From the NCBI GenBank assembly GCA_050290185.1, contig JBNKHE010000006.1:128001-192000 (forward strand): DNA of 64,000 nt, written 5' to 3'. A program made the position numbers and the translations under genes. Positions 18,422 to 40,493 of this stretch are shown piece after piece. The DNA is from Pontiella sp. GTDB lineage: Bacteria > Verrucomicrobiota > Kiritimatiellia > Kiritimatiellales > Pontiellaceae. Within the stretch, counting starts at the first letter, position 1, and every line of letters starts with the position of its first letter. Below the pieces are notes generated by a model. That model did not search any database and was not told where the DNA came from. It saw nothing but the letters and a program-made list of their open reading frames with translations.

Positions 18422-18643
18422 TCAAACCCACCAGATGCCGCGCTTGCGCGGATTGCCGAACGAAGCAAAGTCATCGCCCGATTCGCGCAATACGGTATCG
18501 AGTTCCTCTTCCGTGAAGTCGAAGCCCTCCCGGTTGGCTTCCGCCACAAAGGCCGGTTTCGGCTCCAATGTATCGTATTTCAGCCGCAATACCTTGTCCT
18601 CGCCACCCGCAATCAAAAACCGTTCCACTTCTTTCTTCGCCAT
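18422..18643 (-). CDS. Nif11-like domain small protein (73 aa)
   Basis: MAKKEVERFL...FVAEANREGFDFTEEEL pattern; AGGAG RBS. Confidence 0.75.
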   Translation of the reverse strand: MAKKEVERFLIAGGEDKVLRLKYDTLEPKPAFVAEANREGFDFTEEELDTVLRESGDDFASFGNPRKRGIWWV

Positions 18644-18677
18644 TTTCTTCTCCTGGTTAAATAGGTTACCTCTATTT

Positions 18678-18694
18678 AACATGAGGTGTGCCAA
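18678..18694 (-). promoter_or_regulatory. Possible non-canonical sigma54 promoter of the Nif11-like gene
   Basis: TTGGCACACCTCATGTT: perfect -24 element, but GT instead of GC at -12. Confidence 0.3.
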
Positions 18695-20156: not shown

Positions 20157-21629
20157 TTAGAGCGACTTCATGTTGCTCATGGCGGCGCGCAGCTCTTCGC
20201 CGATGATTTCCACTTCGTGGTAGCGGATTTCGGCGTTTACTTCGACGAGCGTCTTGTTGTCGACCTTGTTGTCCGCCAGTTCGAGGCCCTTGCCGATAAC
20301 GTCGGTGCCAACCTTGGACATGAAATCCTTCAGCAGCGGAACGGCGGCGTGCGAGAAGAGGTAGCAGCCGTATTCAGCCGTGTCGGAAATAATGCGGTTC
20401 ATTTCAAACAGCTTCTTGCGCGCAATCGTGTTGGCGATGAGCGGCGTTTCGTGGAGCGATTCGTAGTAGGCCGATTCCGGCTTGATGCCGACTTCAACCA
20501 TCGCTTCGTACGCCAGTTCGACGCCGGCCTTGACCATGGCGACCATCAGGATGCCCTTGTCGAAATATTCCTGCTCGCTGATTTCAGCAGCGGTAGGCTC
20601 GGTCTTTTCGAAGGCCGTCTCGCCGGTCTCCTTGCGCCACGTCAGCAGCTTGACGTCGTCGTTGGCCCAGTCTTCCATCATGGTGCTGGAAAACACGCCG
20701 GTGATGATGTCGTCCATGTGCTTTTCAAACAGCGGGCGCATGATGATCTTCAGCTCCTCGGCCAGGTCGAACGCCTTGATCTTGGCCGGGTTGGAAAGGC
20801 GGTCCATCATGTTGGTGATGCCCCCCTGCTTGAGCGCTTCGGTAATCGTTTCCCAGCCATATTGGATGAACTTCGCGGTCCAGCCTGTATCTACGCCTTC
20901 GGCGACCATCTTGTCGAAGCAGAGGATCGAACCGGCCTGCAACAGACCGCAGAGAATGGTCTGCTCGCCCATGAGGTCGGATTTCACTTCGGCAACAAAA
21001 TTGGATTCCAGCACGCCGGCGTGGTGCCCGCCCTGGGCAACGGCAAGTGCTTTTGCGAGTTCCATGCCGTCGCCATTCGGATCGTTTTCGCGGTGGCAGG
21101 CAATCAGCGTCGGAACACCAAAGCCGCGCTTATATTCTTCGCGCACTTCGGAACCGGGTGATTTCGGGGCAACCATGATCACGGTCAGGTCCTTGCGGAT
21201 GAGCGTGCCTTCTTCAACAATGTTGAAGCCGTGGGCATAGCAGAAGGTCGCGCCCTGCTTCATCAGCGGAACAACGGTTTCAACGACGTTGGTGTGCTGT
21301 TTGTCGGGGGCGAGGTTCATGACGATGTCGGCGGTCGGAAGCATTTCCTCATAGGTGCCGACGCTAAACCCGTTTTCGGAAGCGTTGAGGTAGGACTGGC
21401 GTTTTTCCGTGATGGCGGCGGCGCGCAGGGTGTAGGAAACGTCGAGGCCGCTGTCACGCATGTTGAGACCCTGGTTCAGGCCTTGGGCGCCGCATCCGAC
21501 GATGACGATCTTCTTGCCCTTGGCATATTCGCATCCATTGGCGAACTCGGCGGCATCCATGAAGCGGCAGGTGCCGATTTCTTCAAGCTTCAGACGCATC
21601 GGAAGCGTATTGAAATAATTTTGTCCCAT
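20157..21629 (-). CDS. ilvC: Ketol-acid reductoisomerase, long class II (E. coli type)
   Basis: NYFNTL start, [39 protein letters not shown]; 490 aa. Confidence 0.97.
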
Positions 21630-21677
21630 TGTTTTCTCCTTGGTTAATTCGAACGCGCGGAACCTACTCCAAATCAC

Positions 21678-21729
21678 ACGTTGCGTAAATTGAATTATTT
21701 GGGATATAGTATTGCGATTTTCGAAATAA
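21678..21729. promoter_or_regulatory. Tandem IlvY operators (O1/O2-like)
   Basis: ACGTTGCGTAAATTGAATTAT (21678-21698) and GTATTGCGATTTTCGAAATAA (21709-21729): two 21-bp imperfect palindromes 10 bp apart, resembling AYRTTGCAA-N3-TTGCAAYRT. Confidence 0.7.
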
Positions 21730-21735
21730 AAAAAG

Positions 21736-21812
21736 GCGTGAGCCGTGACGATTGAAACGTGATCTGGGGGGAATTCACGCTTCATGGCTCAATCATCACG
21801 GAATCACGGTCA
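21736..21812. repeat. CGTGA/TCACG palindromic element in the ilvY leader
   Basis: CCGTGACGATTGA pairs with TCAATCATCACGG, and TGAGCCGTGA pairs with TCATGGCTCA; related to 9564-9622. Confidence 0.55.
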
Positions 21813-21853
21813 TGGAATTGATCTTCGTGGCTACACAAAACCGAGGAGATGTC

Positions 21854-22717
21854 GTGGATATTGCTGCATTGGAAACCTTCATCAAAACGGCGGAACTGCT
21901 GCATTTCGGCCGGGCAAGCCGGGCTTGCAACCTGAGCCCGTCGGCACTCACGCGTACCATCCAGCGGCTGGAAGAGGAGGTCGGGCAGATGCTCTTCATC
22001 CGCGATAACCGCAGCGTAGCACTGACTGAAGCAGGCAACCAGCTGCTTACGTATGCTCGCAGTGCCGTCCTGGAATGGCAGCATTTCCAGGGATCTCTTG
22101 CTCCCCGGGAGGAGGTTGCGGGTGCGATTTCGGTCTACGCCTCCATCACCGCGGTTTACAGCCTGTTGCCCGATCTGCTCGAAGCGTACCGGTCGGCCTA
22201 TCCCGACGTGCAACTGGCGCTGCGGACCGGCGCCGCTGAACGGGCTATCGAGCAGCTGATGAGCGGGGAAATCGATCTGGCCATTGCCGCCCTGCCCGAT
22301 ACCAAGCAGACCCAGCTGGAATTCATGCCGCTGGCGGAAACACCGCTGGTGTTTATCGCGCCGAAATCATCGGATCCAATACGACGAAAACTGGACCTGT
22401 CGAAAGAGCCGCTGGTGGTACCGCAATCCGGTGTGGCGCGGAACCGGCTGGATGCATGGCTGCGGCGCAACCATGTCGTCCCCAACATTTCCACGGAGGT
22501 TTCTGGAAATGAAGCCCTGATTGCCATGGTCCGCCTGGGCGCCGGAACGGGAATCGTGCCGCAACTCGCCCTGGAGCGCAGTCCTTTCCGCGATGACGTG
22601 AACATTATTGCAAACGCCCCCAAACTTGACCCCTACGTCGTCGGCCTCTGCTCCAGCAAACGCAACCTCAAGCGGCCTGCCGTCAAAGCTATTTGGGAAT
22701 TGGCGGCATCCCTCTAA
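21854..22717 (+). CDS. ilvY: LysR-family activator IlvY
   Basis: LHFGRAS...LSPSALTRTIQRLEEE...LFIRDNRSV HTH, ASITAVYS, VSGNEALIAMV.LG; divergent from ilvC; GTG start with GAGGAG RBS. Confidence 0.9.
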   Translation: MDIAALETFIKTAELLHFGRASRACNLSPSALTRTIQRLEEEVGQMLFIRDNRSVALTEAGNQLLTYARSAVLEWQHFQGSLAPREEVAGAISVYASITAVYSLLPDLLEAYRSAYPDVQLALRTGAAERAIEQLMSGEIDLAIAALPDTKQTQLEFMPLAETPLVFIAPKSSDPIRRKLDLSKEPLVVPQSGVARNRLDAWLRRNHVVPNISTEVSGNEALIAMVRLGAGTGIVPQLALERSPFRDDVNIIANAPKLDPYVVGLCSSKRNLKRPAVKAIWELAASL

Positions 22718-22822: not shown

Positions 22823-23164
22823 CTAGCCGATGGCTTCGGTGCCCTTCTCCCCGGTGCGGATCCGGATGCATTCCGGCAGATCGAGAACGAAAATCTTTCC
22901 ATCCCCGATGTTGCCGGTGCGAGCTCCCTTGATGATCGCATCGGTCGTGGCTTCGACAAATTCAGCGTTTACCGCGATCTCGAGACGAACCTTCTTGAGC
23001 AGGTTCACTTCGACGTCCGTGCCGCGGTAGGTCTCATGATAGCCCTTCTGCTGACCACATCCCAGCGCGTTGGTGACGGACATCTTGTAGACTTCGGCCT
23101 CGTACAGGGCCTGTTTGACCTCGTTGAGGGCTTCGGGCTGTATGTATGCAATAATCAGCTTCAT
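22823..23164 (-). CDS. glnB: P-II family nitrogen regulator
   Basis: [11 protein letters not shown]-loop, [20 protein letters not shown]; 113 aa. Confidence 0.93.
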
Positions 23165-23356
23165 ATCCAACATCCTTTGTCGTTTGGTTTATAAGTGGTC
23201 AAGTGCCAGTCAGGCTTCTGCAATGGAGGAGGCTTAACACCTAAACCCTCCTTCTTAACACTCCCTATACATGGGTAAAGAGCAACCATCCATATGTAGA
23301 TCAGGAAACCATTCCTGTCCATATCCGAAGGACGGAACAAATGTCCGACCGGGAAC

Positions 23357-25633
23357 TCAGGCCAGGACTTCAGGGGCCAGGTTTTGATCGATAAGAAAAG
23401 CCTCGATTTCGCTGATCCGGCCAAGGTCAAGCATCTGATTGGCGATCGCCTCGGCATCCTGCAGCCGGATAGAGCCTACCAACCGCTGCACGGTAGGCGC
23501 ATTGACGATATCGATACTGAACTTCCGCAGGCCAACGCCCAACAGAAATGGAAGCAAGCGGTTATCGGCTGAAAGATCCCCGCAAATGGAAACATCCTTG
23601 TTCTGGGTTTTTGCAGCAGCAACAATCCGGTTGATGGCCCGCAGGATCGCCGGATGGTGGGCCAGGTAGAGACTGGACACCTTTTCGTTGGTCCGGTCGA
23701 CCGCAAGCATGTACTGGATGAGATCGTTGGATCCGATGGAGAGAAAATCAGCTTCCTGAGCCAGCTCATCGATAACCTCCACGGCCGAAGGAAGTTCCAC
23801 CATAACACCCAGTTGGGTCTCCCGGTTGAACGGAATCCCGCCGGCTTCGAGCTCATCCATGCATTCGTAGACGATATCCCGGGCCGCCAGAAAATCATCC
23901 ACCGATGAAACCAGCGGAAACATGATCCGGGTATCGCTTTCCGCTCCGGCACGCAGAAAAGCGCGCAACTGGTCGCAGAAAATATCCTTGTTCTGCAACG
24001 AAAAGCGGATGGCACGCATGCCGAGAAACGGGTTGGCCTCGCTGACGTGCGAATAGTAGGAGAGCATCTTGTCCCCGCCGATATCCAGCGTGCGGAAGGT
24101 TACGCTTCGGCCTACCATCTGATCCACCAGCTTCTTGTAGATCAGATACTGCTCCTCCTCGCTCGGGAAGTCGGTGCGCACGATAAACGGAAATTCGGAG
24201 CGGTAGAGCCCCACGCCTTCGGCCTTGAACTTATGGGCAGGCTTGAGGTCGCTCAACAGATTGATGTTGGCATAGATATGCACGCGTTCACCGCATTTTG
24301 TCAGGGTTTTTTCCTGCACGTCGGCGGCATCGTGCAAGGCTTGCCAGGCCTCATCCAGCTCCTTGTATTTGCGCTGGACCTCGTCGGTTGGTTCGAGATA
24401 GATAATCCCCTGCTCGCCATCGACCAGCATCTCGATGCCTTCCTCGATGGCATCGGCCTCCTCGCGGCTGATGGAGACCATGGGGATACCCAGTGAGCGG
24501 CTGATGATGGCGTTGTGCGAGGTTACCCCGCTACTGACAATGAAGCCCTCGACGTTTTCGGCCGACAATTTAAGGATATCGGACGGCAGCAGCTCGTGAG
24601 CGATGATGATCTGGCCGCGATAGTCGCAGGCGTCGGCTTCCTCATTGAGCAGGTTGCGCGTAAGGCGGGTTCCCAGGTCTTTTACGTCGATCACCTTTTC
24701 GCGAATCATCGGCATCTTGCTTTTGGAGAACACCTCGACATATTCGTTGACCACTCCCGCAATCGCCTTAACAGCAGGCGTGCCGGTTTCAATCAGGCCG
24801 GCAATGCGGCCGGTAAACTGCTTATCCTCGAGGATGAGCAGGTGGGCGCTGAAAATGAGTACGGCGACGTCGGCCAGCTCGGTCGAGGTCTGGCGCTGCA
24901 GTTGCTCGATCTGGCGCATCGTTTTATCGAGCGCCTTGTTGAAATCATCCAGGGTATGCGGCGACGCATCAGGGTCGGGCAGCAGGCAGGCATCGGCATC
25001 GTTTGCATCCAGCGTACAGGCCCGCCCCCGGGCCGTTCCCGTGCTCGCAGCCCGCCCCCGCAGGATGTCCCCCTTGCCCATCTTCCTGATGGCCGGCGCC
25101 TCTTCTACCAGCGCCCGTTCGCGAACCTCGCTCAACAGCTGGACATTCTCGATCATCGTCGCCAGCTGGGCCGCAATGGCCCGCAGAGCCTTCACGTCGT
25201 TCGGGGTAAAATAGTTGGTTTCCTTCGCCTGGACCACCAGAGCGCCGATTCTTCTCAAACCGCGAAGGATCGGCACGGCCAGAAACGCTTCGTATTCCTC
25301 TTCATGAATGCCCGGGAAAAACTTGTAGGAGGCGCTCTTGGAGGCGCTCCCAACGCAGATGGGGCGCAATTCACGGATCGCCCGGCCGGTAATCCCCTCC
25401 CCCACGGCCAGCTTGACGGTTCCAATGGCGCCTTCATCCAGGCCCTGGGTGGCGCGCAGGGTCAGCTCCTTGTGCTCCTCGTCATAAATGTAGATCGAGC
25501 AAACATCGGCCTGCATATGCCTGGCAACCGTCGTCACCACGGTTTGCAACAACACCTTGCGGTCCTGTCCTTCTTCGGCCAAGGACATCAGCTCGGCGAT
25601 ATCGCATACGAGATCTACATTCCGTTTTTTCAT
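23357..25633 (-). CDS. ptsP: PEP-protein phosphotransferase with N-terminal GAF domain (EI-Ntr)
   Basis: GAF (ADVCSIY...LRATQGL...GEGITG), TSHNAI phospho-His, GVGLYRSEF, RTLDIGGDK, EANPFLGMRAIR, SIGSNDLIQY. Confidence 0.93.
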   Translation of the reverse strand: MKKRNVDLVCDIAELMSLAEEGQDRKVLLQTVVTTVARHMQADVCSIYIYDEEHKELTLRATQGLDEGAIGTVKLAVGEGITGRAIRELRPICVGSASKSASYKFFPGIHEEEYEAFLAVPILRGLRRIGALVVQAKETNYFTPNDVKALRAIAAQLATMIENVQLLSEVRERALVEEAPAIRKMGKGDILRGRAASTGTARGRACTLDANDADACLLPDPDASPHTLDDFNKALDKTMRQIEQLQRQTSTELADVAVLIFSAHLLILEDKQFTGRIAGLIETGTPAVKAIAGVVNEYVEVFSKSKMPMIREKVIDVKDLGTRLTRNLLNEEADACDYRGQIIIAHELLPSDILKLSAENVEGFIVSSGVTSHNAIISRSLGIPMVSISREEADAIEEGIEMLVDGEQGIIYLEPTDEVQRKYKELDEAWQALHDAADVQEKTLTKCGERVHIYANINLLSDLKPAHKFKAEGVGLYRSEFPFIVRTDFPSEEEQYLIYKKLVDQMVGRSVTFRTLDIGGDKMLSYYSHVSEANPFLGMRAIRFSLQNKDIFCDQLRAFLRAGAESDTRIMFPLVSSVDDFLAARDIVYECMDELEAGGIPFNRETQLGVMVELPSAVEVIDELAQEADFLSIGSNDLIQYMLAVDRTNEKVSSLYLAHHPAILRAINRIVAAAKTQNKDVSICGDLSADNRLLPFLLGVGLRKFSIDIVNAPTVQRLVGSIRLQDAEAIANQMLDLGRISEIEAFLIDQNLAPEVLA

Positions 25634-25661
25634 ATGTCTCCAACTCACTTAACAGGGTAAC

Positions 25662-25771: not shown

Positions 25772-28700
25772 ATGAACAAGCCCTCTGCAGAAAAGCTGCT
25801 CGAAATCTACCGTTCCATGATCGCCTCGCGCTATACCGACCAGTTGCAGTCGGCCGCCGCGCAAAGGGGCGAAGTTTTCTTCTATATTCCTTCGTCCGGG
25901 CACGAAGCCAGCGCCGCGCTCAACGCGCACCTGATCGGGGCCGACTGGCTGCACCTGCACTACCGCGACCGCGCCCTGGCCTACGCCCGCGGCGTCACGT
26001 ACGAATCCGTATTCTACGGCCTGTTCTCCAAAGAGGAATCCAATTCCGGCGGCCGGCGCATGCCCGCCTTCCCGTGCGATCCCGAATTGAATATACTGAG
26101 CACCCCGACTCTGGTCGGAAGCAACGTGCTGCAGGCGGTCGGCGTGGCATCGGAAATCAAAGATCTGGACGGCAACCCGTTCGTGACGGTATCGGTCGGC
26201 GACGGAGCCACCCAGCAGGGCGACTTCTACGAAGCCATCGCCGAGGCCGTCCGCGCCAACCTTCCGGTGCTGTTTCTGATCGAGGACAACCGCTTTGCGC
26301 TTTCCACCGTGACCAAAGGCAATACCTTCTACTCCCTGCCCGGCGGGGAAACCGAAAGCTTCTACGGCCTGCCCATTCACCGGGTTGACGGTAGCGACGC
26401 CATGGCCACCTATGAAACGTTTGGCGACGTCGCTTCAACGATTCGTGCATCGCGCGGACCGCAGATTGTGGTCTTCAACGTCGAGCGGCTCGAAAGCCAC
26501 ACCAATGCCGACGACCAGTCCATGTACCGTACCGAGGCCGACCTGAAACATGCCAAGGACAATGCCGACCCCTGCGCCCGCCTGCGCGAAGCCATGCTGG
26601 CCGACGGCATTGACGAGGCACAGGTTAAAGCGATCGAGGACGAGGTCAAGGACGCCATCGACGCGGCTTTTCACACCGCCCGCAAGGGAACTACGCCCAA
26701 GGCGAGCCTTACGGCCAAGAAACCGCTTCCCGAACCGCGCGTGGAATACCGCGGCACCGATGACGCCCGTACCTTGAGCATGCTCGAAGCCATGCGCGAG
26801 GCCCTCAAGGCCCGCCTGGCGAGCGACCCACGAACCTCCTTGCTCGGGCAGGACATCGAAGATCCAAAGGGCGATGTCTTCGGTCTCACCCGCGGTTTGA
26901 GCAAGGCATATCCCGATCAGGTCCACAATGCGGCGTTAGCCGAAAACACGATTCTCGGCGTCTCTACCGGTCAGGCGCTGGCCGGCGGCCATCCCGTCGC
27001 CTTCATGCAGTTTGCCGACTTCCTGCCGGTGGCCTACAACCAGATCCTTTCCGAAATCGGCGCCATGTACTGGCGGACCAACGGCCAGTGGGAAGCGCCC
27101 GTGCTGATGATGTCGATCTGCGGCGGCTACCGTCCGGGCCTCGGCCCCTACCACGCCCAAACCATGGAATCGATCTGCGCCCACGTCCCGGGCGTCGATG
27201 TCTTTATGCCTTCGACGGCCGCCGACGCCGCCGGCCTGCTCAACGCCATTTCCGAATCGGGACGCCCGTCGGTCTTCCTCTTCCCGAAGAGCCTGATCAA
27301 CGACCGCACCAACACGACCTCTGCCGATGTTGAAAAGCAGTATGTGCCCATCGGCAAGGCACGAATCACACGCACCGGACAGGATATTACCCTCGTGAGC
27401 TGGGGCGGATCCATGCCGGTATGCGAACGCACGGCCGAAGCCCTTGCCGAAACCGGCATTAACGCTGAAATCATCGATCTGCGCACCATCTTCCCGTGGG
27501 ACGAGGAAGCCGTATTGGCCTCCGCGAAAAAGACCGGCAAGCTCGTTATCGTGCACGAAGACAACCAGACCGCCGGCATGGGCGGCGAAATTGCGGCCAC
27601 CATCGCCGAACGCGCCGGTAACGCGGTACAGATCGCCCGCGTCACGCGGCCCGATACCTACATCCCCTACGACTATTCCTGCCAGATCGAGGTGCTGCCG
27701 TCCTACAAGCGCACCCTCGAAAAGTGCTGCGAGCTGCTCGACATCGACATTCATTGGGATAAGCCCGTGGAAGAGGAAGCCGGAACCGTCACCGTCAAGG
27801 CGATCGGCTCCAGCCCGTCGGACGAAACCATCACGATCACCAGCCTCCCCATAAGCGTCGGCGATACCATTGCCGAGGGCGATCTGATTGCGTCGGTTGA
27901 AGCCGACAAAGCGTCGATGGATATTTCCGCCCCGGTCAGCGGCACGATTTCGGAGTTGCTTGCAGAAGAAGGCGATGTGCTACGCGTCGGAACACCGATG
28001 GTCAGGATTGCATCCGACGAGGCGGCCCAGCTGAAGCCGCTGACCAAGGAAGATCCCGGCACCCCGGTCATGGAACGCCGCCGCGCGGCTGAAGCACAGC
28101 CGGCCCCGGACAGGAGCGATATCCATCCCGCCCTTTCAAACTCCATATACATTTCCAATATCGCCACCGTCTTTGGCTCGCGCCACCTCACCAACGACGA
28201 GCTGCTGCAGGGCCATGGCGAATGGGATTCGGAAGCGATCCGCAAGCGAACGGGCATCGAAAACCGCTACTGGATTGACGGAGATGAAAACGTGCTGTCG
28301 CTGGCGGTCAAAGCCACCCGCAACCTGCTTGCAAAGGAACAGCTCCACATTTCCGATATCGGCGCAATTATCTGCTCAACCGGCACGCCACTGGTCATGA
28401 CGCCTTCGCTGGCCTGTAGCGTTCTGCACGAACTCAGCCCGGAAAAGGGCGAAGTACTGATGCAGGCACATGACGTCAACGCCGCCTGCTCCGGCTACAT
28501 GTATGCCCTGCAGTCGGCATTCGACTTCCTGACCAACGCCCCCGACAAGAAGGTGATTGTCATCACCGCCGAAACGCTCTCGCCCATGGTCAACCACGAT
28601 GACCAGAAAACCATGGCCCTGTTTGGCGATGCAGCGACGGCATCACTGGTCAGCTGCGAAAAACGTCCGGGCGATATCGGCGTCAAACTCAACCGCCCGG

Positions 28701-29104
28701 TACTCTCTGCAACGGGCGTGGATGCAAAGGTCCTCTATGTCCCGAACATGGGCAGCGGCGAAGTGATCGAGATGGAAGGGCTGACCGTCTTCAAGCTGGC
28801 CGTGCGCAAAATGATCGACATGCTCGACCTGGCCTGCCAGGAACGCGGCATCACGGTCGAGGATCTGCAGAAGATCGTGCCGCACCAGGCCAACGAACGC
28901 ATCATCGAGGCCATCCGCAAGACGATCAAATGCCCGTCGGAAAAGATGTTCAACCATATCCGCAAGTACGGAAACACCTCGTCGAACACGATTCCGATCG
29001 CGCTCGCCGAGCTGGTCCCCGAACTGGACTCCGACACGCTGATCGGCCTCACCGCCTTCGGCGGCGGATTCACCTTTGGCGCCGCGGTGATCGAGAAGGT
29101 TTAG
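25772..29104 (+). CDS. Fusion: 2-oxoacid dehydrogenase E1alpha + E1beta + lipoyl domain + 3-oxoacyl-ACP synthase III (FabH)
   Basis: TPP motif GDGATQQG...EDN and RLESHTNADD; E1beta LAENTILG, QFADF, GPYHAQ; lipoyl VEADKAS (K713); FabH triad AACSG (C906), PHQAN (H1038), YGNTSS (N1068), AFGGG; one uninterrupted 1110-aa ORF. Confidence 0.93.
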   Translation: MNKPSAEKLLEIYRSMIASRYTDQLQSAAAQRGEVFFYIPSSGHEASAALNAHLIGADWLHLHYRDRALAYARGVTYESVFYGLFSKEESNSGGRRMPAFPCDPELNILSTPTLVGSNVLQAVGVASEIKDLDGNPFVTVSVGDGATQQGDFYEAIAEAVRANLPVLFLIEDNRFALSTVTKGNTFYSLPGGETESFYGLPIHRVDGSDAMATYETFGDVASTIRASRGPQIVVFNVERLESHTNADDQSMYRTEADLKHAKDNADPCARLREAMLADGIDEAQVKAIEDEVKDAIDAAFHTARKGTTPKASLTAKKPLPEPRVEYRGTDDARTLSMLEAMREALKARLASDPRTSLLGQDIEDPKGDVFGLTRGLSKAYPDQVHNAALAENTILGVSTGQALAGGHPVAFMQFADFLPVAYNQILSEIGAMYWRTNGQWEAPVLMMSICGGYRPGLGPYHAQTMESICAHVPGVDVFMPSTAADAAGLLNAISESGRPSVFLFPKSLINDRTNTTSADVEKQYVPIGKARITRTGQDITLVSWGGSMPVCERTAEALAETGINAEIIDLRTIFPWDEEAVLASAKKTGKLVIVHEDNQTAGMGGEIAATIAERAGNAVQIARVTRPDTYIPYDYSCQIEVLPSYKRTLEKCCELLDIDIHWDKPVEEEAGTVTVKAIGSSPSDETITITSLPISVGDTIAEGDLIASVEADKASMDISAPVSGTISELLAEEGDVLRVGTPMVRIASDEAAQLKPLTKEDPGTPVMERRRAAEAQPAPDRSDIHPALSNSIYISNIATVFGSRHLTNDELLQGHGEWDSEAIRKRTGIENRYWIDGDENVLSLAVKATRNLLAKEQLHISDIGAIICSTGTPLVMTPSLACSVLHELSPEKGEVLMQAHDVNAACSGYMYALQSAFDFLTNAPDKKVIVITAETLSPMVNHDDQKTMALFGDAATASLVSCEKRPGDIGVKLNRPVLSATGVDAKVLYVPNMGSGEVIEMEGLTVFKLAVRKMIDMLDLACQERGITVEDLQKIVPHQANERIIEAIRKTIKCPSEKMFNHIRKYGNTSSNTIPIALAELVPELDSDTLIGLTAFGGGFTFGAAVIEKV

Positions 29105-30747
29105 ATTTCCTTCGTAATCCAGGGCTTACCGCGCTTGAAGCTTTTGAATTGCATTTCATACAGTCTTCGAATCTCAGCTTTGGAGTCCGTCGAAGCATCC
29201 AATACTTTCTCCATGATTTTGGATGCCGCAGTAAAATCGCCACTTCTGGCATATGCACACGCCAACAGGCTCTGCGCTTCGTGGTCATTAGACTCACGAG
29301 TGCCAACCAAAAGCTGGGCATATTTCAGCGCTTGTTCTGCATCCCACAATGCAGAATCATTGGCACACGCATAACATTGTATTAATGATTTGCAGGCAGA
29401 GATGTTTCCGACATCGGCAGCGCGCTCCCACCACGTGATCGCTTCAGCCATATCCACATACCTATGCGAAAGGTTCCCGATCTCGTCTGCATAGTTTGAC
29501 AAGGGATTCAGCTTGTAGGCCTCATGGTAGATCTCCAACGCCAATAATCCTTTTTTAGGCAAATGACTTCCTGTCTCAAACTTCACAGCCTCATCAGCCA
29601 GCGCCTTGGCTGTTGCCTCCCTGCCAGACTTATCCTTATTCTCAAGGATTCTCAGGTATGCGCCCATATTGTTATCGAATTCTTTGACTTTTTCCTGAGC
29701 CTCCGAATGCCCTTTGTAGGCAGCAATCCGGAAAAGGAAATAGGCGGTGCGAAGGCTGCGTTTCTGATTGTTTATATTCGTAATTTGACAATCGCTACAG
29801 CCAGGACAATCCGGACTGCAGTACCTTTTTGTCACATCTGAAAAACCAGTCATGTACTTCTTCGCAAGCTCGAATGCGGATTCCGCAGAGTTTTGCAGTA
29901 AATAGTACCTTACCGTTAACTCTCCAGGCATCTGGTTCCACATGTCATGTCTTTCGTAATATTCACACAATGAATCCAAGCACTTATGGGCGGCCTCCAG
30001 ATTGTTTTCATCCAAATATAGATAGCTCATCTGGAGATATATATCCGGCTGCCCCGAATCAACCAGCCGTTGGCAGATTTTCATTCCGGTTTCCGGACTG
30101 TAATATGGATCCGTGCGCTCACAAAAACGACATAGCATCCGTTTCTCCGCCCATGCGGAAGCCCCGGTTTCAGCAGCCTTTTTCAGCCACTCATCGGTAA
30201 CCTCCGGAGGGTATGGCCTTCCTTGTTTATATTGATTAAGTACCCGTAATAGTTTCGCCTTGAACCCTTTTTCGCCGGCATAGAACTGTGCTTGCGCCCC
30301 CGTCTTGGTTGCTTTGCCAAACTCCATATTGCGCGCATAAGCTGCGGCAAGAAGGCTCAGCGCTTCCGCATCCTTCGACTTTTTCCGAACTACAGCACCA
30401 GCGTATTTGACCGCCTTTTCGCCATCGTGGAATTGTGGATTGGGACAGGAGGCATAGATGCGCGCAAGGCCCTCGCAGGCCTTGAGATTGTTTTGGGAAA
30501 CCGCCTGTTCATACCACTCAATGGCCTTGGCATAATCGACCTCGGTGCCCTCGCCGTTTTCCAGACAGTGCCCCGCACCGACCATCGCCGGCACATGCCC
30601 CTCTTCCGCCGCCTGCACAAACAAAGGAAATGCCTGCGCCGGATCGGACTCGAACAACACCGCTCCCTGCTTGAATAGCTCGGCGCCATTCCCGTATGCA
30701 ACACCTGACCATAGACAAAGCATCAGCCTTGCAATAAGCCTCTTCAT
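29101..30747 (-). CDS. Secreted Sel1/TPR-repeat protein
   Basis: Signal peptide; Sel1 repeats (AAEEGHVPAM...GEGTEVDYAKAIEWYEQA; EAITWWERAADVG). Confidence 0.8.
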   Translation of the reverse strand: MKRLIARLMLCLWSGVAYGNGAELFKQGAVLFESDPAQAFPLFVQAAEEGHVPAMVGAGHCLENGEGTEVDYAKAIEWYEQAVSQNNLKACEGLARIYASCPNPQFHDGEKAVKYAGAVVRKKSKDAEALSLLAAAYARNMEFGKATKTGAQAQFYAGEKGFKAKLLRVLNQYKQGRPYPPEVTDEWLKKAAETGASAWAEKRMLCRFCERTDPYYSPETGMKICQRLVDSGQPDIYLQMSYLYLDENNLEAAHKCLDSLCEYYERHDMWNQMPGELTVRYYLLQNSAESAFELAKKYMTGFSDVTKRYCSPDCPGCSDCQITNINNQKRSLRTAYFLFRIAAYKGHSEAQEKVKEFDNNMGAYLRILENKDKSGREATAKALADEAVKFETGSHLPKKGLLALEIYHEAYKLNPLSNYADEIGNLSHRYVDMAEAITWWERAADVGNISACKSLIQCYACANDSALWDAEQALKYAQLLVGTRESNDHEAQSLLACAYARSGDFTAASKIMEKVLDASTDSKAEIRRLYEMQFKSFKRGKPWITKEI

Positions 30748-32999: not shown

Positions 33000-34043
<1,044 letters not shown>

Positions 34044-34113
34044 TTCTTCCTGATCCATCAAATATCTTCCTGCAACGTGCTGTTGCGCCTGTCCGCCCTG
34101 AGGTAAGGGACGG

Positions 34114-34941
34114 ATGGCTTTTAGGAATAAAAGAGTAGTGTATGCCACAGCTGCGATCGCGTTGCTGGTGGTGGTGTTTGTTCCGCTTCCCTCGCTCACG
34201 CTTAAGGGGAAGGGCGTGGTTCGTAGCGCCATGACCCCGGCCGAACGCGGCACCTCCGGCATATGGAAGCGCCTGTCCGAGGCGGCGGCGGCGATTCGCG
34301 GCATGGGCGGCGCAGTCGAAGAAAACCGCGATCTTTCCCGCGAGCTGGTGCGCGTCCAGGCCAAGCTCAATAGTTTACTCGATGCGGAGGCCGACAACGT
34401 CCGCCTGCGCCACGCGTTCCGGTTTTATCAGGAACAACCGGACACGATGATCCCCTGCGATGTCGTCAGCCGCGATATCAGCGGCTGGTGGAACTCGGTC
34501 CGCATCGGCAAGGGCTCCAAAGCGGGCATTGAACCGGATCTGGCCGTGATCAGTCCCGACGGGCTGGTGGGAAAAACCACGGAGCCTACCCCGTACACTA
34601 CCGAAGTGCTGCTGGTATCCGATCCCGCCTGCCAGGTATCGGCTAAAATCAAGCGTGTGGATGTCTTCGGCCTGGTTCGCGGTGCCGGAACCACGATGAA
34701 GGGCGAGCCCCGTGCGCGGATCGACTTCATCAACAAGGATGTCGAAATCCGCGTGAACGACGAAGTGGTGACCTCCGGCCTCGGAGCATTCCCCAAGGGG
34801 GTGCATATCGGCTATGTGAACAGGATCTACCGCGATGAATCCGGCCTTTTCCAGTATGCAGACATCATTCCGCGCGCCACCGTCGGCCTGCTCGACTATG
34901 TCTTCGTGCTTTCCCCCGCTCCCCGGGAGACCACGGAATGA
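34114..34941 (+). CDS. mreC: Rod shape-determining protein MreC
   Basis: N-terminal TM, coiled coil, IGKGSKAGI...GLVGK, VVTSGLG.FPKG; position after mreB. Confidence 0.92.
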   Translation: MAFRNKRVVYATAAIALLVVVFVPLPSLTLKGKGVVRSAMTPAERGTSGIWKRLSEAAAAIRGMGGAVEENRDLSRELVRVQAKLNSLLDAEADNVRLRHAFRFYQEQPDTMIPCDVVSRDISGWWNSVRIGKGSKAGIEPDLAVISPDGLVGKTTEPTPYTTEVLLVSDPACQVSAKIKRVDVFGLVRGAGTTMKGEPRARIDFINKDVEIRVNDEVVTSGLGAFPKGVHIGYVNRIYRDESGLFQYADIIPRATVGLLDYVFVLSPAPRETTE

Positions 34942-35447
34942 AACGACGCGCCTACATGCTGTTCATCATTGTTTTCGGCGCCCTGCTGCAACAGGCGCTG
35001 CCGGGAGTCGCAATGCTTGGCGGGATGAAACCCCCGATTCTGGCGGCCATGGCGCTGCACCATGCATTGCGGAAAGGTACGCCGGACCTCTGGTTGGCGG
35101 TCCTGCTGGCCGCGCTGCTGCAGGACGGGCTTGAGCTGGGCTCCTTCGGACCGGCTCTGCTGGCGTTTCCGGTGATGAGCCAGCTGGCCTACCGCATCCG
35201 GAACGAAATATTTGCCGACGGGCTGGTCACGCAGCTGGCCCTCGGCGCCGCCATGGGCATCTTCACGGCGTTCACCACGTTGCTGATCTATTCCATTACC
35301 GGCCAGCGCGTGCTGCCAGCCGGACTGGTATTCCTGCGGCTTTTCGGTTCGGTGCTGCTAGGCATGGCCACCCTGCCCGTGGTTTCCCGCATCGTCAACG
35401 GTCTGGAATCGCTGATTCCCAAACCCCGGGAGTACGGCTGGCAATGA
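34938..35447 (+). CDS. mreD: Rod shape-determining protein MreD
   Basis: 169-aa polytopic membrane protein between mreC and mrdA with ATGA overlaps. Confidence 0.75.
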   Translation: MKRRAYMLFIIVFGALLQQALPGVAMLGGMKPPILAAMALHHALRKGTPDLWLAVLLAALLQDGLELGSFGPALLAFPVMSQLAYRIRNEIFADGLVTQLALGAAMGIFTAFTTLLIYSITGQRVLPAGLVFLRLFGSVLLGMATLPVVSRIVNGLESLIPKPREYGWQ

Positions 35448-37606
35448 AGGTGCGTCAAAAAAGAGAAGCCAGTATCTTGGTGGTGTGGACGGTCCTTGGC
35501 CTCATGCTGACCGGCATGGGTACACTGGTCGCGGAGCTTTGGAAACTGCAGGTGAAACAGCAGAGTGGCTTCGAAAAGGTCTTCCGCAACCAGTGCGTCC
35601 GGCGCGTCCGCCTGCCGGCGGTACGCGGCAAGATCTACGACACCAACGGCGAGTGCCTGGCCGACAGTGTCCCGAACTATTGCATCGCCATCTATACCGC
35701 CGAATTACGTGCGCCGCATTCCCCCGTCGCCAACGCCCTCGAGTTGGTTCACGAAATAGAAACACGTGTCGGCCGCAAGCCGGACGTTACCTATCGCGAC
35801 ATCAAGCGCCACATGATGTTCACCCCGGACCAGCCGCTGATGGCGTGGAAGGGGTTGAAACCGGAAGAAATCTCCAAGTGGCGCGCGGCCTTCGAAGACT
35901 GGACCGCGCCGCAGAATGGTTCACTGCTGCGGCACCGCATTCCCGGACTCGATCTCGGAAAGCCGGTCGATGGAGACTCGATCGTCATTCATACCCAGAA
36001 ACTGAAAAAAGAACCGACCAGCACCGCGGCGAACACGCTGGAACTCGTGTATGAAATCTCCGAGCGGATCGGCATCGCGCCCCAGGTTACGTTGCGGGAT
36101 ATCAAAAACCACATCTATGCCCGCCGGCCGCTTCCGCTACTGGCGTGGCAGAAGGTTGATAGCCGGACCATGGCCCGGTGGGCGGACACCTGCTCAAACC
36201 TGCTCGGCACCGATATCTACTACAAACCGGACCGCACCTATCCGGAAGGCGAAAATCTGGGCCATCTGATCGGCTACACGCGCGAAGCCGATGCCATACG
36301 GGAAGAAGAAGGCCAGCGGATTGACTTCGACATGCGCGATATCAAAGGCATCAAGGGCCTGGAGAGCACTTACAACGAATTGCTCAGCGGGGAACCCGGC
36401 TATAATCTCGTGCAGATCGATGTCTCCGGCTTCCATCACCGCGACCTCCAGTCGAAACCGCCGGTCCCGGGAGGCGATCTGCTTCTCGCCATCGATAAGA
36501 ACATCCAGCGGTTTGCCGTCGAAGCGCTCGCAATGAAACAGAACGGAGAGGACCCGGACCAGCCGGTGCGCGGCGCAGTGGTGGTGCTCGACCCGAACAA
36601 CGGCGACGTACTTGCCCTGGCCAGCTCGCCTTCTTTCGATCCCAATGCCTACATGGCTTCGTCCAGCTACCGCGCGAAGCTCATGAAGGATCCCTCGATG
36701 CGCGCCATCAATCGCGCGGTTTACGGGCAGTATCCTCCGGGCAGCACCTTCAAGCCAATTGCCGCCCTCGGCGTATTGCGCGTGTATCCGGGCTTCGCCG
36801 AAACCGTCTACGACTGCGACGGCTACATTAGGGTGAACCGCCGGAAAATGCGCTGCGACACCTACCGGACCGGTGGTCACGGCGAGCTCAACCTGCGCGA
36901 GACGATCATGTGCTCCTGCAATGTCTACATGTTCAGGATGGCCCTGGATGTCGGATTTGAGCCGATCCACAACATCGCCGAGCAGATGGGTCTGGGGCAG
37001 TATGCCGGCCTGTTTCCGGATCTCGACAAGCCGCCGCAACAGAAGGATTTGAAATACGGGAACCTGCCCGACCACACCATCAACGACATTGATCTGTGCA
37101 ACATGGCCATCGGCCAGGGAGCCATTACCGCAAGCCCGCTGCAGATGGCAATGGCGACGGCGGCCATCGCCAACGGCGGCACGCTCTACCGCCCCCGCCT
37201 CGTGAAGAAGTGGCGCACCGGTCCGGACGAGGACTACAATAACAACCCGACCTGGGCCATCCGGCGCATTGACGCCCCCATCGAAGCGTTCGAGCTGGTG
37301 CGTGCCGGCATGCTTGATGTGATCGAAGACCGCGGAGGCACCGGAGGGAAAGCCCGGGTTCCGGGCATCGCCATCGCCGGGAAAACCGGCACGGCGCAAT
37401 ACAATAAAAAATTCCCCGATGGCATCGTGCGTGAAAGCCAGCAGACCTGGATGATCTCGTTTGCGCCCTATGATTTCCCCCGCTACGCCATCGCCTTCCT
37501 GGTGGAGGATGGCACCTTTGGCGGCAGCACGGTCGGACCGCGCCTCAGCTACCTCTACGAGCATATTTTCGAATATGACGGAACGCTCAAAAAGGAGGTC
37601 ATGTGA
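35444..37606 (+). CDS. mrdA: Penicillin-binding protein 2 (class B) with duplicated head-domain segment
   Basis: RGKIYD, PGSTFK (SxxK), SCN (SxN), KTGT; operon position. Confidence 0.92.
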   Translation: MKVRQKREASILVVWTVLGLMLTGMGTLVAELWKLQVKQQSGFEKVFRNQCVRRVRLPAVRGKIYDTNGECLADSVPNYCIAIYTAELRAPHSPVANALELVHEIETRVGRKPDVTYRDIKRHMMFTPDQPLMAWKGLKPEEISKWRAAFEDWTAPQNGSLLRHRIPGLDLGKPVDGDSIVIHTQKLKKEPTSTAANTLELVYEISERIGIAPQVTLRDIKNHIYARRPLPLLAWQKVDSRTMARWADTCSNLLGTDIYYKPDRTYPEGENLGHLIGYTREADAIREEEGQRIDFDMRDIKGIKGLESTYNELLSGEPGYNLVQIDVSGFHHRDLQSKPPVPGGDLLLAIDKNIQRFAVEALAMKQNGEDPDQPVRGAVVVLDPNNGDVLALASSPSFDPNAYMASSSYRAKLMKDPSMRAINRAVYGQYPPGSTFKPIAALGVLRVYPGFAETVYDCDGYIRVNRRKMRCDTYRTGGHGELNLRETIMCSCNVYMFRMALDVGFEPIHNIAEQMGLGQYAGLFPDLDKPPQQKDLKYGNLPDHTINDIDLCNMAIGQGAITASPLQMAMATAAIANGGTLYRPRLVKKWRTGPDEDYNNNPTWAIRRIDAPIEAFELVRAGMLDVIEDRGGTGGKARVPGIAIAGKTGTAQYNKKFPDGIVRESQQTWMISFAPYDFPRYAIAFLVEDGTFGGSTVGPRLSYLYEHIFEYDGTLKKEVM

Positions 37607-37715
37607 TGAGCCGCCTTTTTGACCTCTGGCACATGGCGCACGGAGCATGGAGCGGACGGCACGAAACCGCCATGCGTTCTGCGCTTTGCGCTTTGCCGGC
37701 ACGGGAGGTGCTGTC

Positions 37716-38894
37716 ATGAACGGCATCCACCTTAAGCGCCTGGACTGGGTTATGCTCGGAACGATTCTGCTGCTGATCGGGCTGAGTGCCGCGTTTATCT
37801 ACAGTGCCCAGTTTAAGTCGGATGCGGATCCGGTCGGCACCAACTGGATCAAGCAACTGGTCTTTGCCGGCATGGGCCTGGGGGCCTATTTTGCCTTGGT
37901 CTGGCTCGACTACAGCCACATCGCCAAGCTCTCCTGGCTCATCTATGGCGGTGCGATACTGCTGCTGTTGCTAGTATTCGCGTTCCCCGAGGTCAATGGC
38001 GCCCACCGCTGGATTCCACTGCCGGGCTTTACCCTGCAGGCCTCGGAGATCGCGAAGATTGCCGTGGTCATCGGCCTTGCGACCTATTTGTCTGCCCCCG
38101 ACCGCGATATGGATGAATGGAAAACCTTCTTCATCGCAGTCGCGATCGTCGGAGTGCCGTTCCTTTTGATTGCGGCGGAACCGGATCTGAGCACCTCGCT
38201 GACGCTGGCGCCGATCACGCTGGCCATCATGCTCTATTGCGGGCTGCAGCGGCGTCTCCTCATCATCGGCGTTGCGGCATTTCTTCTTTTGGCGGTCGTC
38301 GCCTGTGTGTGGATCAAATACGAGACCACCCCGGAAATTGAAGCGCTGCCCGAGGCCGAACGCCCCGGGATCGTACTGCCGCGGATGCCGTTGCTGGCCG
38401 ACTACCAGAAGGGGCGCATCAAGGTTTTCCTCACCGAGAATCACGATTTGGCCAATGCCGGCTGGAATAAACTGCAGTCGCAGATTGCCGTGGGCTCCGG
38501 CGGGTTTCACGGTAAAGGCTATTTGAACGGGACGCAGAATATCCTGGGATTCCTTCCCCGGACAGTGGCTCCCACCGATTTTATCTTCTGCGTGATCGCG
38601 GAAGAAACCGGCTTTCTGGGTGGAGTGGGCTTCGCGCTGCTTTACTCGTTATTGTTAGGAAGATGTATGTGGGCCTCCATCAGGGCCCACGATGAATTTG
38701 GGCGGCTCGTGGCGCTGGGAATCGGCGTCATGTTGTTCTGTCATGTGTTTGTAAACATAGCGATGACGATCGGCGTATTGCCGATCACGGGGCTTCCGTT
38801 GCCACTGATGAGCTACGGAGGATCCTTCATGGTCAGTACCATGATCGCACTTGGCCTGGTGCAAAGCGTGTACCATCGCCGGAGAATTAGATAA
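37716..38894 (+). CDS. rodA: SEDS peptidoglycan polymerase RodA
   Basis: GAHRWI, QASEIAK, EPDL, GSGGFHGKG, TDFIF, PITGLPLPLMSYGGS. Confidence 0.93.
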   Translation: MNGIHLKRLDWVMLGTILLLIGLSAAFIYSAQFKSDADPVGTNWIKQLVFAGMGLGAYFALVWLDYSHIAKLSWLIYGGAILLLLLVFAFPEVNGAHRWIPLPGFTLQASEIAKIAVVIGLATYLSAPDRDMDEWKTFFIAVAIVGVPFLLIAAEPDLSTSLTLAPITLAIMLYCGLQRRLLIIGVAAFLLLAVVACVWIKYETTPEIEALPEAERPGIVLPRMPLLADYQKGRIKVFLTENHDLANAGWNKLQSQIAVGSGGFHGKGYLNGTQNILGFLPRTVAPTDFIFCVIAEETGFLGGVGFALLYSLLLGRCMWASIRAHDEFGRLVALGIGVMLFCHVFVNIAMTIGVLPITGLPLPLMSYGGSFMVSTMIALGLVQSVYHRRRIR

Positions 38895-38906
38895 GGAGAG
38901 ATCATC

Positions 38907-40493
38907 ATGTTAAAGAAAATGAAGCCTTTTGGCGGGAAAAAGCGTGAGAAGAAGGAAATCATTATCAACATCGAGCCGCTTGAAACACGCGTGGCGGTGC
39001 TTGAGGATGGGCGGCTCGATAACTTCCACATCGAGCGCGTAGAGGACAACCGGATCGTCGGAAGCATCTTCAAGGGAAAGATTCAGAACCTGGAAGACGG
39101 ACTTCAGGCGGCCTTTGTCGATATCGGACTGAAGAAGAATGCCTTCATCCATTACTGGGACATGATCCCGGAGGATGCCGCGCGTCTGGAACGGGAGGAA
39201 GGCATCCGGGCCAAAAGCTCCACCAGCCGGCGGAAAAAATACAAACCCGGTGAAATGGAAAAGATTTTCCCGGTCGGATCCGAAATCATCGTACAGGTAA
39301 CCAAGGATGCCATTGGCACCAAGGGCCCGCGCGTTACCGCCAACTTGAGTATCCCCGGCCGCTTCCTCGTGATGATGCCCGGCACGCACCTCAAGGGCAT
39401 CTCACGAAAGATCGACGACGTGAAGGAACGCAACCGCCTCAAGAAGATTCTCACGCGCCTGCCGGTTCCGGAAAATCTCGGCCTGATCGTGCGCACTGCC
39501 GGTTCCGGCACCCGCAAGGTCAGCTTTGCGCGCGATGCCCGTACCCTGTTCGAAATCTGGAACGACATCGAAAACGGCATTAAGGAAACCCCTGCACCGT
39601 GCAGCCTGTACTCCGAGCCGCGGCTCGCCGAACGCGTGGTGCGCGACTATCTGACCGAAGATATCGACCGCATCTATATCGACAACCGCGATATGTATGA
39701 AAACACCCGGCAGATCATCGCCAAGTTTTCCCGGCGTTCGCGCAACTGGGTGCAGCTCTACGGCGGCGAAGAACCGATCTTCGACTATTTCGAGGTCGAA
39801 AAGCAGATTGAGTCCGCCTACCGCCGCAAGGTCTGGATGAAGTCCGGTGCCTATCTCATTTTCGATGAAACGGAAGCACTGGTGGCGATTGATGTAAACA
39901 CCGGCCGCCACAAGGGAAGCAAGTCGCAGGATGAATCCATTCTGGAAGTGAACCTCGAATCGGCCGAGGAAGTCGCCCGCCAGCTGCGCCTGCGCAATGT
40001 CGGCGGCCTGGTGATCGTCGACTTCATCGACATGAAGTCCAAGCGCGACCAGAATGCGGTATACCGCTGCCTCAAGGAAGCACTCAAGAAGGACCGTGCC
40101 CGTACCAACGTGCTGCAGATTTCGCAGCTCGGCCTGCTCGAAATGACGCGCCAGCGCGTCGAGGAAAGTATCTACACCTCGGGCTATACCGATTGCCATT
40201 ACTGCCGGGGCCGGGGCCGCGTAAAGTCGACGCTCTCCATGAGCGTGGAAATCCAGCGCCGCGTCAGCGAGTGTATGCGCAAGGACCGCAACGGTACGCA
40301 CTCCATGCGCGTTACGGTCAATCCACAGGTGCTCGACCGACTGCGCAAGGAGGACGAACAGGCCCTTATCGATATGGAGCAGCAGTTCCATGGACACCTG
40401 ACCTTCGTCTCCGACTCGCATTTCCATATCGAGGAGTTCACCATCACCAACGATGACAACGGCAAGGAACTTTTCTCTAGCATAGAAAGTTAA
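38907..40493 (+). CDS. rng: Rne/Rng family ribonuclease
   Basis: S1 domain AAFVDIG, QVTKDAIGTKGPR, IDVNTG, RQLRLRNVGGLVIVDFIDM, CHYCRGRG Zn link. Confidence 0.93.
   Translation: MLKKMKPFGGKKREKKEIIINIEPLETRVAVLEDGRLDNFHIERVEDNRIVGSIFKGKIQNLEDGLQAAFVDIGLKKNAFIHYWDMIPEDAARLEREEGIRAKSSTSRRKKYKPGEMEKIFPVGSEIIVQVTKDAIGTKGPRVTANLSIPGRFLVMMPGTHLKGISRKIDDVKERNRLKKILTRLPVPENLGLIVRTAGSGTRKVSFARDARTLFEIWNDIENGIKETPAPCSLYSEPRLAERVVRDYLTEDIDRIYIDNRDMYENTRQIIAKFSRRSRNWVQLYGGEEPIFDYFEVEKQIESAYRRKVWMKSGAYLIFDETEALVAIDVNTGRHKGSKSQDESILEVNLESAEEVARQLRLRNVGGLVIVDFIDMKSKRDQNAVYRCLKEALKKDRARTNVLQISQLGLLEMTRQRVEESIYTSGYTDCHYCRGRGRVKSTLSMSVEIQRRVSECMRKDRNGTHSMRVTVNPQVLDRLRKEDEQALIDMEQQFHGHLTFVSDSHFHIEEFTITNDDNGKELFSSIES

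Follow-up and report, generated by a model that had tools for sequence, protein, structure and literature searches.

Bacterial branched fatty acids are held in textbooks to start from the acyl-coenzyme A (CoA) of a three-enzyme complex. In Bacillus and Staphylococcus this is the branched-chain dehydrogenase complex, made of E1 (alpha2beta2), E2 and E3, and its acyl-CoA goes on to FabH. Two other kinds of described system also come close to the subject of this work. Actinobacterial OdhA/KGD joins E2 and E1 in a single chain; OdhA keeps the E2 core, makes acyl-CoA and has no lipoyl domain. In the quinocarcin and scleric acid systems QncN/QncL/QncM and SclQ1-4 are E1-like, lipoyl and acyltransferase modules that load an acyl unit via an acyl carrier protein (ACP), as set out in passages of PMC6335953. 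We consider here a gene in a stretch of 64,000 nucleotides from Pontiella sp. (order Kiritimatiellales, class Kiritimatiellia; assembly GCA_050290185.1, contig JBNKHE010000006.1, positions 128,001 to 192,000; the window in what follows). It encodes E1alpha, E1beta, a lipoyl domain and a FabH-like 3-ketoacyl-ACP synthase III (KAS III) as one protein of 1110 amino acids (P0001). We argue that this fusion is probably a dedicated primer synthase for branched fatty acids that does without CoA and works via acyl-dihydrolipoamide. A hand-over of some kind that is free of CoA seems to us very likely.

The fusion shares with the branched-chain complex a heterotetramer-type E1 and a lipoyl arm, and with that complex and FabH taken together it would share a need for E3, a FabH-type condensation and, probably, iso products. 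It differs in being one chain, and neither its gene nor an operon encodes an E2 core or a subunit-binding domain. Its KAS III occupies the slot of E2 and lacks the residues W32 and R151 of FabH, and its E1beta lies outside the canonical complexes on a tree (99 by the Shimodaira-Hasegawa-like approximate likelihood ratio test, SH-aLRT). Stand-alone FabH (E. coli 1HN9/1HND, Aquifex 2EBD, B. subtilis 8VD9/8VDB) has the same thiolase fold, triad and R249, but the fused KAS III has no adenine clamp, is joined to its acyl donor and forms a separate branch. The Qnc and Scl modules likewise use a thiamine diphosphate (ThDP) E1 and a lipoyl arm to feed a biosynthesis. Their acceptor is an E2-type acyltransferase, their donor is a ketose, and they sit in a biosynthetic cluster with a dedicated ACP, whereas in the fusion the acceptor is a condensing enzyme, expected to make a C-C bond, and the gene stands alone, apparently for membrane lipids. 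The original work on QncL reportedly found no CoA involved in loading. OdhA is another multi-domain 2-oxoacid dehydrogenase fusion that relies on parts in trans, but the domain set is the reverse. To judge by its sequence, the fusion would work like a branched-chain dehydrogenase plus FabH, yet it fails the defining features of both and of the Qnc-type modules. The earlier note on this DNA knew of no characterised protein with such an architecture, and a literature search, with most subscription journals outside its reach, found no description of one.

The reading frame starts with ATG and has no internal stops. Six Pfam families score above their cut-offs in the order E1_dh (residues 13-310), Transket_pyr (335-509), Transketolase_C (528-635), Biotin_lipoyl (689-746), ACP_syn_III (901-967) and ACP_syn_III_C (1022-1108). 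Pfam and the alignments bear out the intact ThDP-binding E1alpha, the E1beta, the lipoyl domain with K713 and the full Cys-His-Asn triad that the earlier note had seen in the 1110-residue frame. They also bear out its claim that KAS III stands in place of E2: the E2 core (PF00198) and the E3- or subunit-binding domain (PF02817) were not found in the protein by Pfam at E 0.001. The linker ahead of KAS III cannot hold an E2 core because it is too short (Table 1). The ThDP motif G143-D144-G145...N173 with E391, H243 and H461 is present across 42 of 42 diverse homologues (below 70% identity). N173, H243, E391 and H461 are invariant, residue 144 is D in 36 and E in 6, and G145 is kept in 39. K713 is kept in 41 of these 42 and in 88/88 of a second alignment. 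In the lipoyl loop G679 and D684 occur in 88/88 homologues and P682 in 86/88. H1038 and N1068 align to H244 and N274 of E. coli FabH, and R1043, the equivalent of R249, is kept. Against curated families the KAS III domain reaches 226.4 bits for TIGR00747 (below the cut-off of 292.1) and 268.2 bits for NF006829 (above the cut-off of 249).

The central evidence concerns how CoA is bound. In FabH the CoA adenine stacks between Trp32 and Arg151, according to a passage of PMC4606726. Among 198 fused KAS III domains W32 is kept in 2, R151 in 1 and both in 0, while the triad persists (C 198/198, H 196/198, N 195/198) along with R249 (190/198). Of 60 fused representatives (below 60% identity) 41 have D or E at the W32 position. 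A count over named loci, partly the same proteins, gives W32 in 0/73, R151 in 0/73 and the Cys in 73/73. These loci come from the best 80 of at least 570 confirmed matches, and those counted have E1beta, lipoyl and KAS III in one frame. The seven uncounted loci are six partial query matches, mostly at contig ends, and L093, which matched 5-1095. P0208 and P0267, which have a fused-type KAS III without a lipoyl domain and are possibly fragments, are outside both counts. In contrast, W32 and R151 are both kept in 20/20 stand-alone FabHs (19 from Kiritimatiellia, that of the same genome included, and E. coli). All five solved FabHs that were aligned keep them too, including B. subtilis FabHA and FabHB and S. 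aureus FabH; the B. subtilis and S. aureus enzymes prime branched chains. On these alignments the clamp for the CoA adenine is gone from the fused KAS III while its triad is intact.

Table 1. Features of the fusion gene in the window (positions of the whole stretch; residues of the fusion protein)
Feature	Position	Strand	Residues and remarks
Whole gene, E1alpha-E1beta-lipoyl-KAS III fusion	25772..29104	+	1110 aa; open reading frame (ORF) + Pfam
E1alpha domain	25772..26731	+	aa 1-320; G143-D144-G145...N173, H63-Y64-R65, H243
E1beta domain	26774..27739	+	aa 335-656; E391, Q413-F414-A415-D416-F417, H461
Lipoyl domain	27785..28015	+	aa 672-748; conserved loop G679-S-S-P-S-D684
Predicted lipoylation site	27908..27910	+	K713 in E-A-D-K-A; biotinyl M-K-M motif not present
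Linker	28016..28147	+	aa 749-792; 37-66 aa long across 88 homologues
KAS III (FabH-like) domain	28148..29101	+	aa 793-1110
KAS III triad, Cys	28487-28489	+	C906
KAS III triad, His	28883-28885	+	H1038
KAS III triad, Asn	28973-28975	+	N1068
W32 position of E. coli FabH (CoA-adenine-stacking)	28235..28237	+	A822
R151 position of E. coli FabH (CoA-adenine-stacking)	28604..28606	+	Q945

We infer the chemistry of all the steps, the substrate and the dimer as follows. The fused E1, probably dimeric, would decarboxylate a branched 2-oxoacid on ThDP (in Kiritimatiellales most likely 2-oxoisovalerate) and reductively acylate its own lipoyl-K713. The lipoyl arm would pass the acyl group directly to C906. 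H1038 and N1068 would decarboxylate malonyl-ACP, and condensation would give a branched 3-ketoacyl-ACP. Starting from isobutyryl this would be 4-methyl-3-oxopentanoyl-ACP, which could enter the ordinary type II fatty acid synthesis cycle and lead to iso-C12:0 to iso-C18:0. An E3 acting in trans would re-oxidise the lipoyl arm, and the ordinary FabH of the plsX-fabH-fabD-fabG-acpP-fabF operon would prime straight chains from acetyl-CoA. The bypass of CoA had already been proposed in the earlier note, and comparative tests speak for it: the clamp is lost, the triad is kept, no E2 was found in two carriers, and iso fatty acids figure in the descriptions of carrier lineages. None of the outcomes that the earlier note had named as refutations was encountered. 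The transfer from lipoamide to C906 is the step that we propose on these grounds.

Iso-even fatty acids need an isobutyryl primer. The fusion is carried by 12/12 genomes of the order Kiritimatiellales in a first sample and by 15/15 with a second sample added. All five cultured Kiritimatiellales have iso-even acids among their major fatty acids, according to Table 1 of PMC10880615 and passages of PMC7356697. Rhizobium offers another comparison. The fusion is found in 36 of 121 Rhizobium genomes, and it tracks the tropici-rhizogenes clade: ranked by recA, the 31 genomes nearest to R. rhizogenes include 30 carriers and the 86 others include 2, and 4 carriers have no recA match. In passages of PMC13077888, the genus description of that clade (Martinezella) lists iso-C15:0 3-OH, and the descriptions of Arminella, Gillisella and Parahoeflea name no iso acid. 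Unlike the fusion, canonical bkdA1 does not go along with the iso acid, because it was found in 16/18 non-carriers and 9/18 carriers (36 of the 121 genomes, hand-picked); it was not found in R. rhizogenes NBRC 13257. The Rhizobium fusion lies downstream of olsE in 6/6 loci and upstream of olsC in 4/6, with both neighbours above NCBIfam cut-offs. Its E1alpha pocket and that of other carriers differ from the pocket of the Kiritimatiellales, a difference that would fit valine-derived versus leucine-derived substrates. The passages on olsC and olsE in PMC12971839 and PMC3557214 do not mention the gene between them, passages of PMC5998023 do not mention the fusion gene, and the literature search on Rhizobium iso acids found nothing. 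Two Rhizobium loci may be recorded for themselves. In R. rhizogenes NBRC 13257 (L112, 4720-11980) the order is olsE, fusion, olsC and a ClC channel block. In a Rhizobium that recA places well away from the carrier clade, the copy (G321:C44:165301-166590) is only 53% identical to the R. rhizogenes fusion.

Several observations, set out in this paragraph and the next two, weigh against a CoA-free branched primer synthase. A single branch (97 SH-aLRT) divides the fused KAS IIIs from stand-alone FabH. The loss of W32 and R151 may be one ancestral event, and since the fused domains all fall on the same side of that branch the 198 rows are not independent. The pantetheine-contacting residues R36 (171/198) and N247 (190/198) are kept. 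F is at the R151 position in 31/198 fused domains and could still stack adenine. Only 19 of 60 representatives have K or R at the K214 position, and the ACP-binding patch has therefore changed as well; we take K214 and R249 to have a role in ACP binding. The phenotype match rests on two lineages, and the correlation in Rhizobium is that of one clade with genus-level lists. Cerasicoccus, Tautonia and Pirellulaceae, groups that include carriers, are dominated by straight-chain acids, and rhizobia that do not belong to the carrier clade are reported to have branched 3-OH-15:0 in their lipid A. T877, which aligns with F87, was considered as a marker of branched specificity and rejected, since B. 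subtilis FabHA and S. aureus FabH both have the F.

The partner genes are next to be weighed. The genome (95.5% complete) has a free-standing lpdA, lipA, an lplA-like gene and a GcvH-like ORF elsewhere, as well as the plsX-to-fabF operon by reading of its ORFs. E3 and ACP had been expected to come in trans, and lpdA and AcpP are indeed encoded away from the fusion, along with LipA and the LplA-like ligase. No separate branched-chain E1 was found in the genome by tblastn, and its only other alpha/beta E1 sits in a sugar-catabolic operon. The genome was also to be checked for E2, and it has two, one beside aceE and one in that sugar-catabolic operon with its own E1 and E3. In a survey of 80 of 121 genomes of the class (all 31 carriers and 49 of 90 non-carriers) E2 was found in 29/31 carriers and 40/49 non-carriers. 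These E2s are what a co-localisation scenario would call for. The fusion would then do no more than hold its parts together, with the lipoyl domain visiting an E2 in trans, either that of pyruvate dehydrogenase (PDH) or that of the sugar operon, and KAS III using the released acyl-CoA. Free lipoyl domains can serve E2 cores as substrates, and the mostly kept R36 and N247 agree with such a scenario. It is at odds with the adenine clamp lost in 198/198 fused domains, with a fusion that has no subunit-binding domain, and with the neighbours of 100 loci, where E2 genes are not among the recurrent ones. The E2 core was also not found in the carriers G022 (96% complete) and G004 (97%), even at E 0.01, although absence is not established there because both genomes are drafts. 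Both have lpd and lipA above cut-off, and in G022 the fusion is immediately preceded by an lplA-like gene (227.8 bits, below the cut-off of 280). We regard co-localisation as rather improbable. Canonical FabH is kept in 39/40 carriers, and the CoA-free fusion would therefore be an additional, dedicated primer route and not a FabH replacement. In the Spirochaetota draft G314 (the genome of L085) the fused KAS III is the only TIGR00747 match at E 1e-40, and a stand-alone FabH was not found. The sugar operon (G000:C5:138188-150965, L147) encodes a mannonate dehydratase, a DeoR-like regulator, a short-chain dehydrogenase/reductase and a rhamnulokinase-like protein beside its E2, its E3 and a long-branched, divergent fused E1alpha/beta.

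The same genome has two OAFO-family 2-oxoacid oxidoreductases, a pyruvate:ferredoxin oxidoreductase (PFOR) and an ordinary FabH. The OAFO enzymes and ordinary FabH could make iso primers, via isobutyryl-CoA, without the fusion. This leads to a scenario that keeps the CoA-free relay and changes its substrate. Pyruvate, 2-oxobutyrate or an aromatic 2-oxoacid would give straight chains, odd chains or some minor specialised lipid, and ferredoxin oxidoreductases together with ordinary FabH would supply the iso acids. F417 of E1beta stands where the two annotated branched-chain E1s aligned have Y, the E1alpha pocket of the Kiritimatiellales is unlike that of other carriers, and no NCBIfam E1 model reaches its cut-off on the fusion protein. 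One homologue (P0127) is fused to ketoreductase (KR) and ACP in the manner of a polyketide synthase (PKS). Yet the best solved relative of both E1 halves is the branched-chain enzyme of T. thermophilus, 1um9_A for E1alpha (145 bits; the PDH of G. stearothermophilus scores 106) and 1um9_B for E1beta (200.8 bits). Branched-chain specificity draws on both sides here, as the best PDB relative is branched-chain, yet pocket residues differ and the E1beta clade is separate. Both carrier lineages with fatty-acid lists have iso acids in the passages cited above, and the neighbours across 100 loci are housekeeping or membrane-lipid genes, with a biosynthetic cluster never recurrent. We consider another substrate unlikely and keep to a branched 2-oxoacid.

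It is worth considering what else follows the same front end. Among 29 representatives, picked for odd match patterns, 13 proteins have the E1alpha-E1beta-lipoyl front and a divergent E2-type acyltransferase (AT). They include P0197 (AT+ACP) and P0188, which continues into a ketosynthase (KS) and a nonribosomal peptide synthetase (NRPS) as AT+ACP+KS+MT+C+A. Other endings are a thioesterase (P0159) and KAS III+KR+ACP (P0127). We see P0127, P0188, P0197 and P0159 as candidate 2-oxoacid loading modules of PKS or NRPS lines, and one AT-type relative precedes an NRPS on a Streptomyces plasmid. In P0157 (1018 aa) residues ~770-1018 after the front match no Pfam or NCBIfam family; this region is possibly a further kind of acyl acceptor. 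On a quick, midpoint-rooted E1beta tree of 69 rows the canonical complexes split off at the node already given. The majority of AT types lie outside the KAS types; three rows with an AT and the one with a thioesterase fall among the latter. Since acceptor types intermix on this tree, the last domain has been exchanged more than once, and such exchange fits a role as acceptor of the lipoyl-bound acyl group.

Acyltransferases and thioesterases in the same slot could also be read another way. KAS III would be a surrogate E2 or transacylase that moves the acyl group from lipoamide through C906 to holo-ACP (or CoA), with no condensation, and some KAS III-like enzymes are in fact acyltransferases. 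The His and Asn of malonyl decarboxylation are nevertheless kept in all but two and three of the 198 fused domains, and the loss of the clamp argues against CoA as the acceptor. We give transacylation little credence. Condensation remains the better account, and we lean towards the view that the fusion is a KAS III primed by acyl-dihydrolipoamide, a single-gene module for branched lipids and one member of a wider E1-lipoyl loading family. Such a family would have exchangeable acceptors, namely AT, KAS III, thioesterase and at least one unrecognised domain. If this is true, a ketosynthase that takes its acyl group from lipoamide would be new as enzyme chemistry, and primer supply would be kept apart from the acyl-CoA pool and amino-acid catabolism. 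It would account for the iso-even lipids of the Kiritimatiellales and, in Rhizobium, for the iso-C15:0 3-OH of the tropici-rhizogenes clade. It could also explain why iso-fatty-acid markers are patchy in taxonomy, and the gene would lend itself to transfer into laboratory strains for the production of branched lipids.

The fusion is a genuine single protein and not an assembly artefact. Contigs from four runs of one study were compared with the assembly, of which X1 and X2 are possibly the source, and no joint or indel is listed within the fusion. A contig of X1 (record 3) spans 26457-29600 without a difference or gap, and records 14 and 15 of X3 bridge the alpha/beta and beta/lipoyl/KAS junctions. 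The earlier note had allowed for an assembly error; single contigs bridge every junction. It had also proposed a search for the domain architecture, and all six Pfam families stand in a single chain in 116 of the 120 homologues listed (1370 matches among 7998 scored). An assembly chimera, or a chance read-through of neighbouring genes, would have to explain these contigs as well as a full-length fusion in 29/121 genomes of the class and in named isolates of Pontiella, Cerasicoccus, Tautonia and Rhizobium. We consider both refuted.

An AlphaFold2 model of the full-length protein has a mean predicted local distance difference test (pLDDT) score of 91.0, with only residues 780-788 below 50 and all four domains confident. 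Foldseek matches this model to 1um9_B and to FabH structures (template modelling score by target 0.85-0.93 for the FabH rows), and the E1 fold also matches 8p5v. A model of the lipoyl-KAS III fragment has a predicted template modelling score of 0.73, and because its linker is disordered the docking of lipoyl and KAS III is undefined there. A predicted complex of two KAS III copies (790-1110) and the lipoyl domain (668-772) scored 0.00 in two runs whose controls did not fold, and it is given no weight either way. The linker segment of residues 749-771 (28016-28084) is partly conserved; it is ordered, with a predicted strand, in the full-length model and disordered in the fragment. It may pack on E1.

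The closest named homologues are from Pontiella and Pontiellaceae, and P. desulfatans and P. sulfatireligans carry the fusion. In the class, two more genomes beyond the 29 have it split over contig ends. A second sample of the phylum has 23 carriers in 251 genomes, only one of them outside the class. Outside the Kiritimatiellales the fusion is spread patchily and reaches other phyla: the matches listed include Pirellulaceae, Tautonia, Spirochaetales, Cerasicoccus arenae, Sumerlaeia, Armatimonadia, Xenococcus, Nitrospirales, betaproteobacteria, Rhizobium rhizogenes and R. freirei. Among the named cultured carriers is Rhizobium freirei PRF 81, a bean inoculant. Viral contigs gave no match to the fusion, no record among 604 from plasmids reaches 80% coverage of the protein, and no holder is listed in the RNA collection. 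The ESM Atlas has clusters with the same architecture and nothing beyond.

In the window the fusion stands alone. It is divergent from ptsP and tail to tail with a Sel1/TPR gene, the stop codons overlapping at 29101-29104. A promoter and terminator scan gave nothing above chance. The recurrent neighbours across the 100 loci are lineage-specific housekeeping genes (ptsP, the mre operon and, by sequence reading, thyA/folA-like genes), with lipid genes in Rhizobium. Genes for ACP, PKS and NRPS, like those for E2, are not recurrent beside the fusion in these loci, and ACP, PKS and NRPS genes are not adjacent to it in the window either. The divergent ptsP (GAF-EI, 22823-25648, minus strand) recurs in 25/100 loci and is followed by a P-II-like ORF, by eye. 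Relatives have an ammonium transporter in the ptsP block (19 loci), for which the window has no room. The gene ilvC (ketol-acid reductoisomerase) and a divergent LysR regulator lie at 20157-22717, 3-5 kb upstream of the fusion. The product of ilvC makes the precursor of 2-oxoisovalerate, but its proximity was rejected as evidence, as it recurs in only 7/100 loci, all of them close relatives. An operon read by eye as mreB-mreC-mreD-PBP2-rodA-RNase E/G is found at 33015-40493 (plus strand), and in several other Kiritimatiellia the mre operon adjoins the fusion. Lastly, a 90-aa ORF at 18422-18694 (minus strand) presumably resembles a Nif11-type leader peptide.

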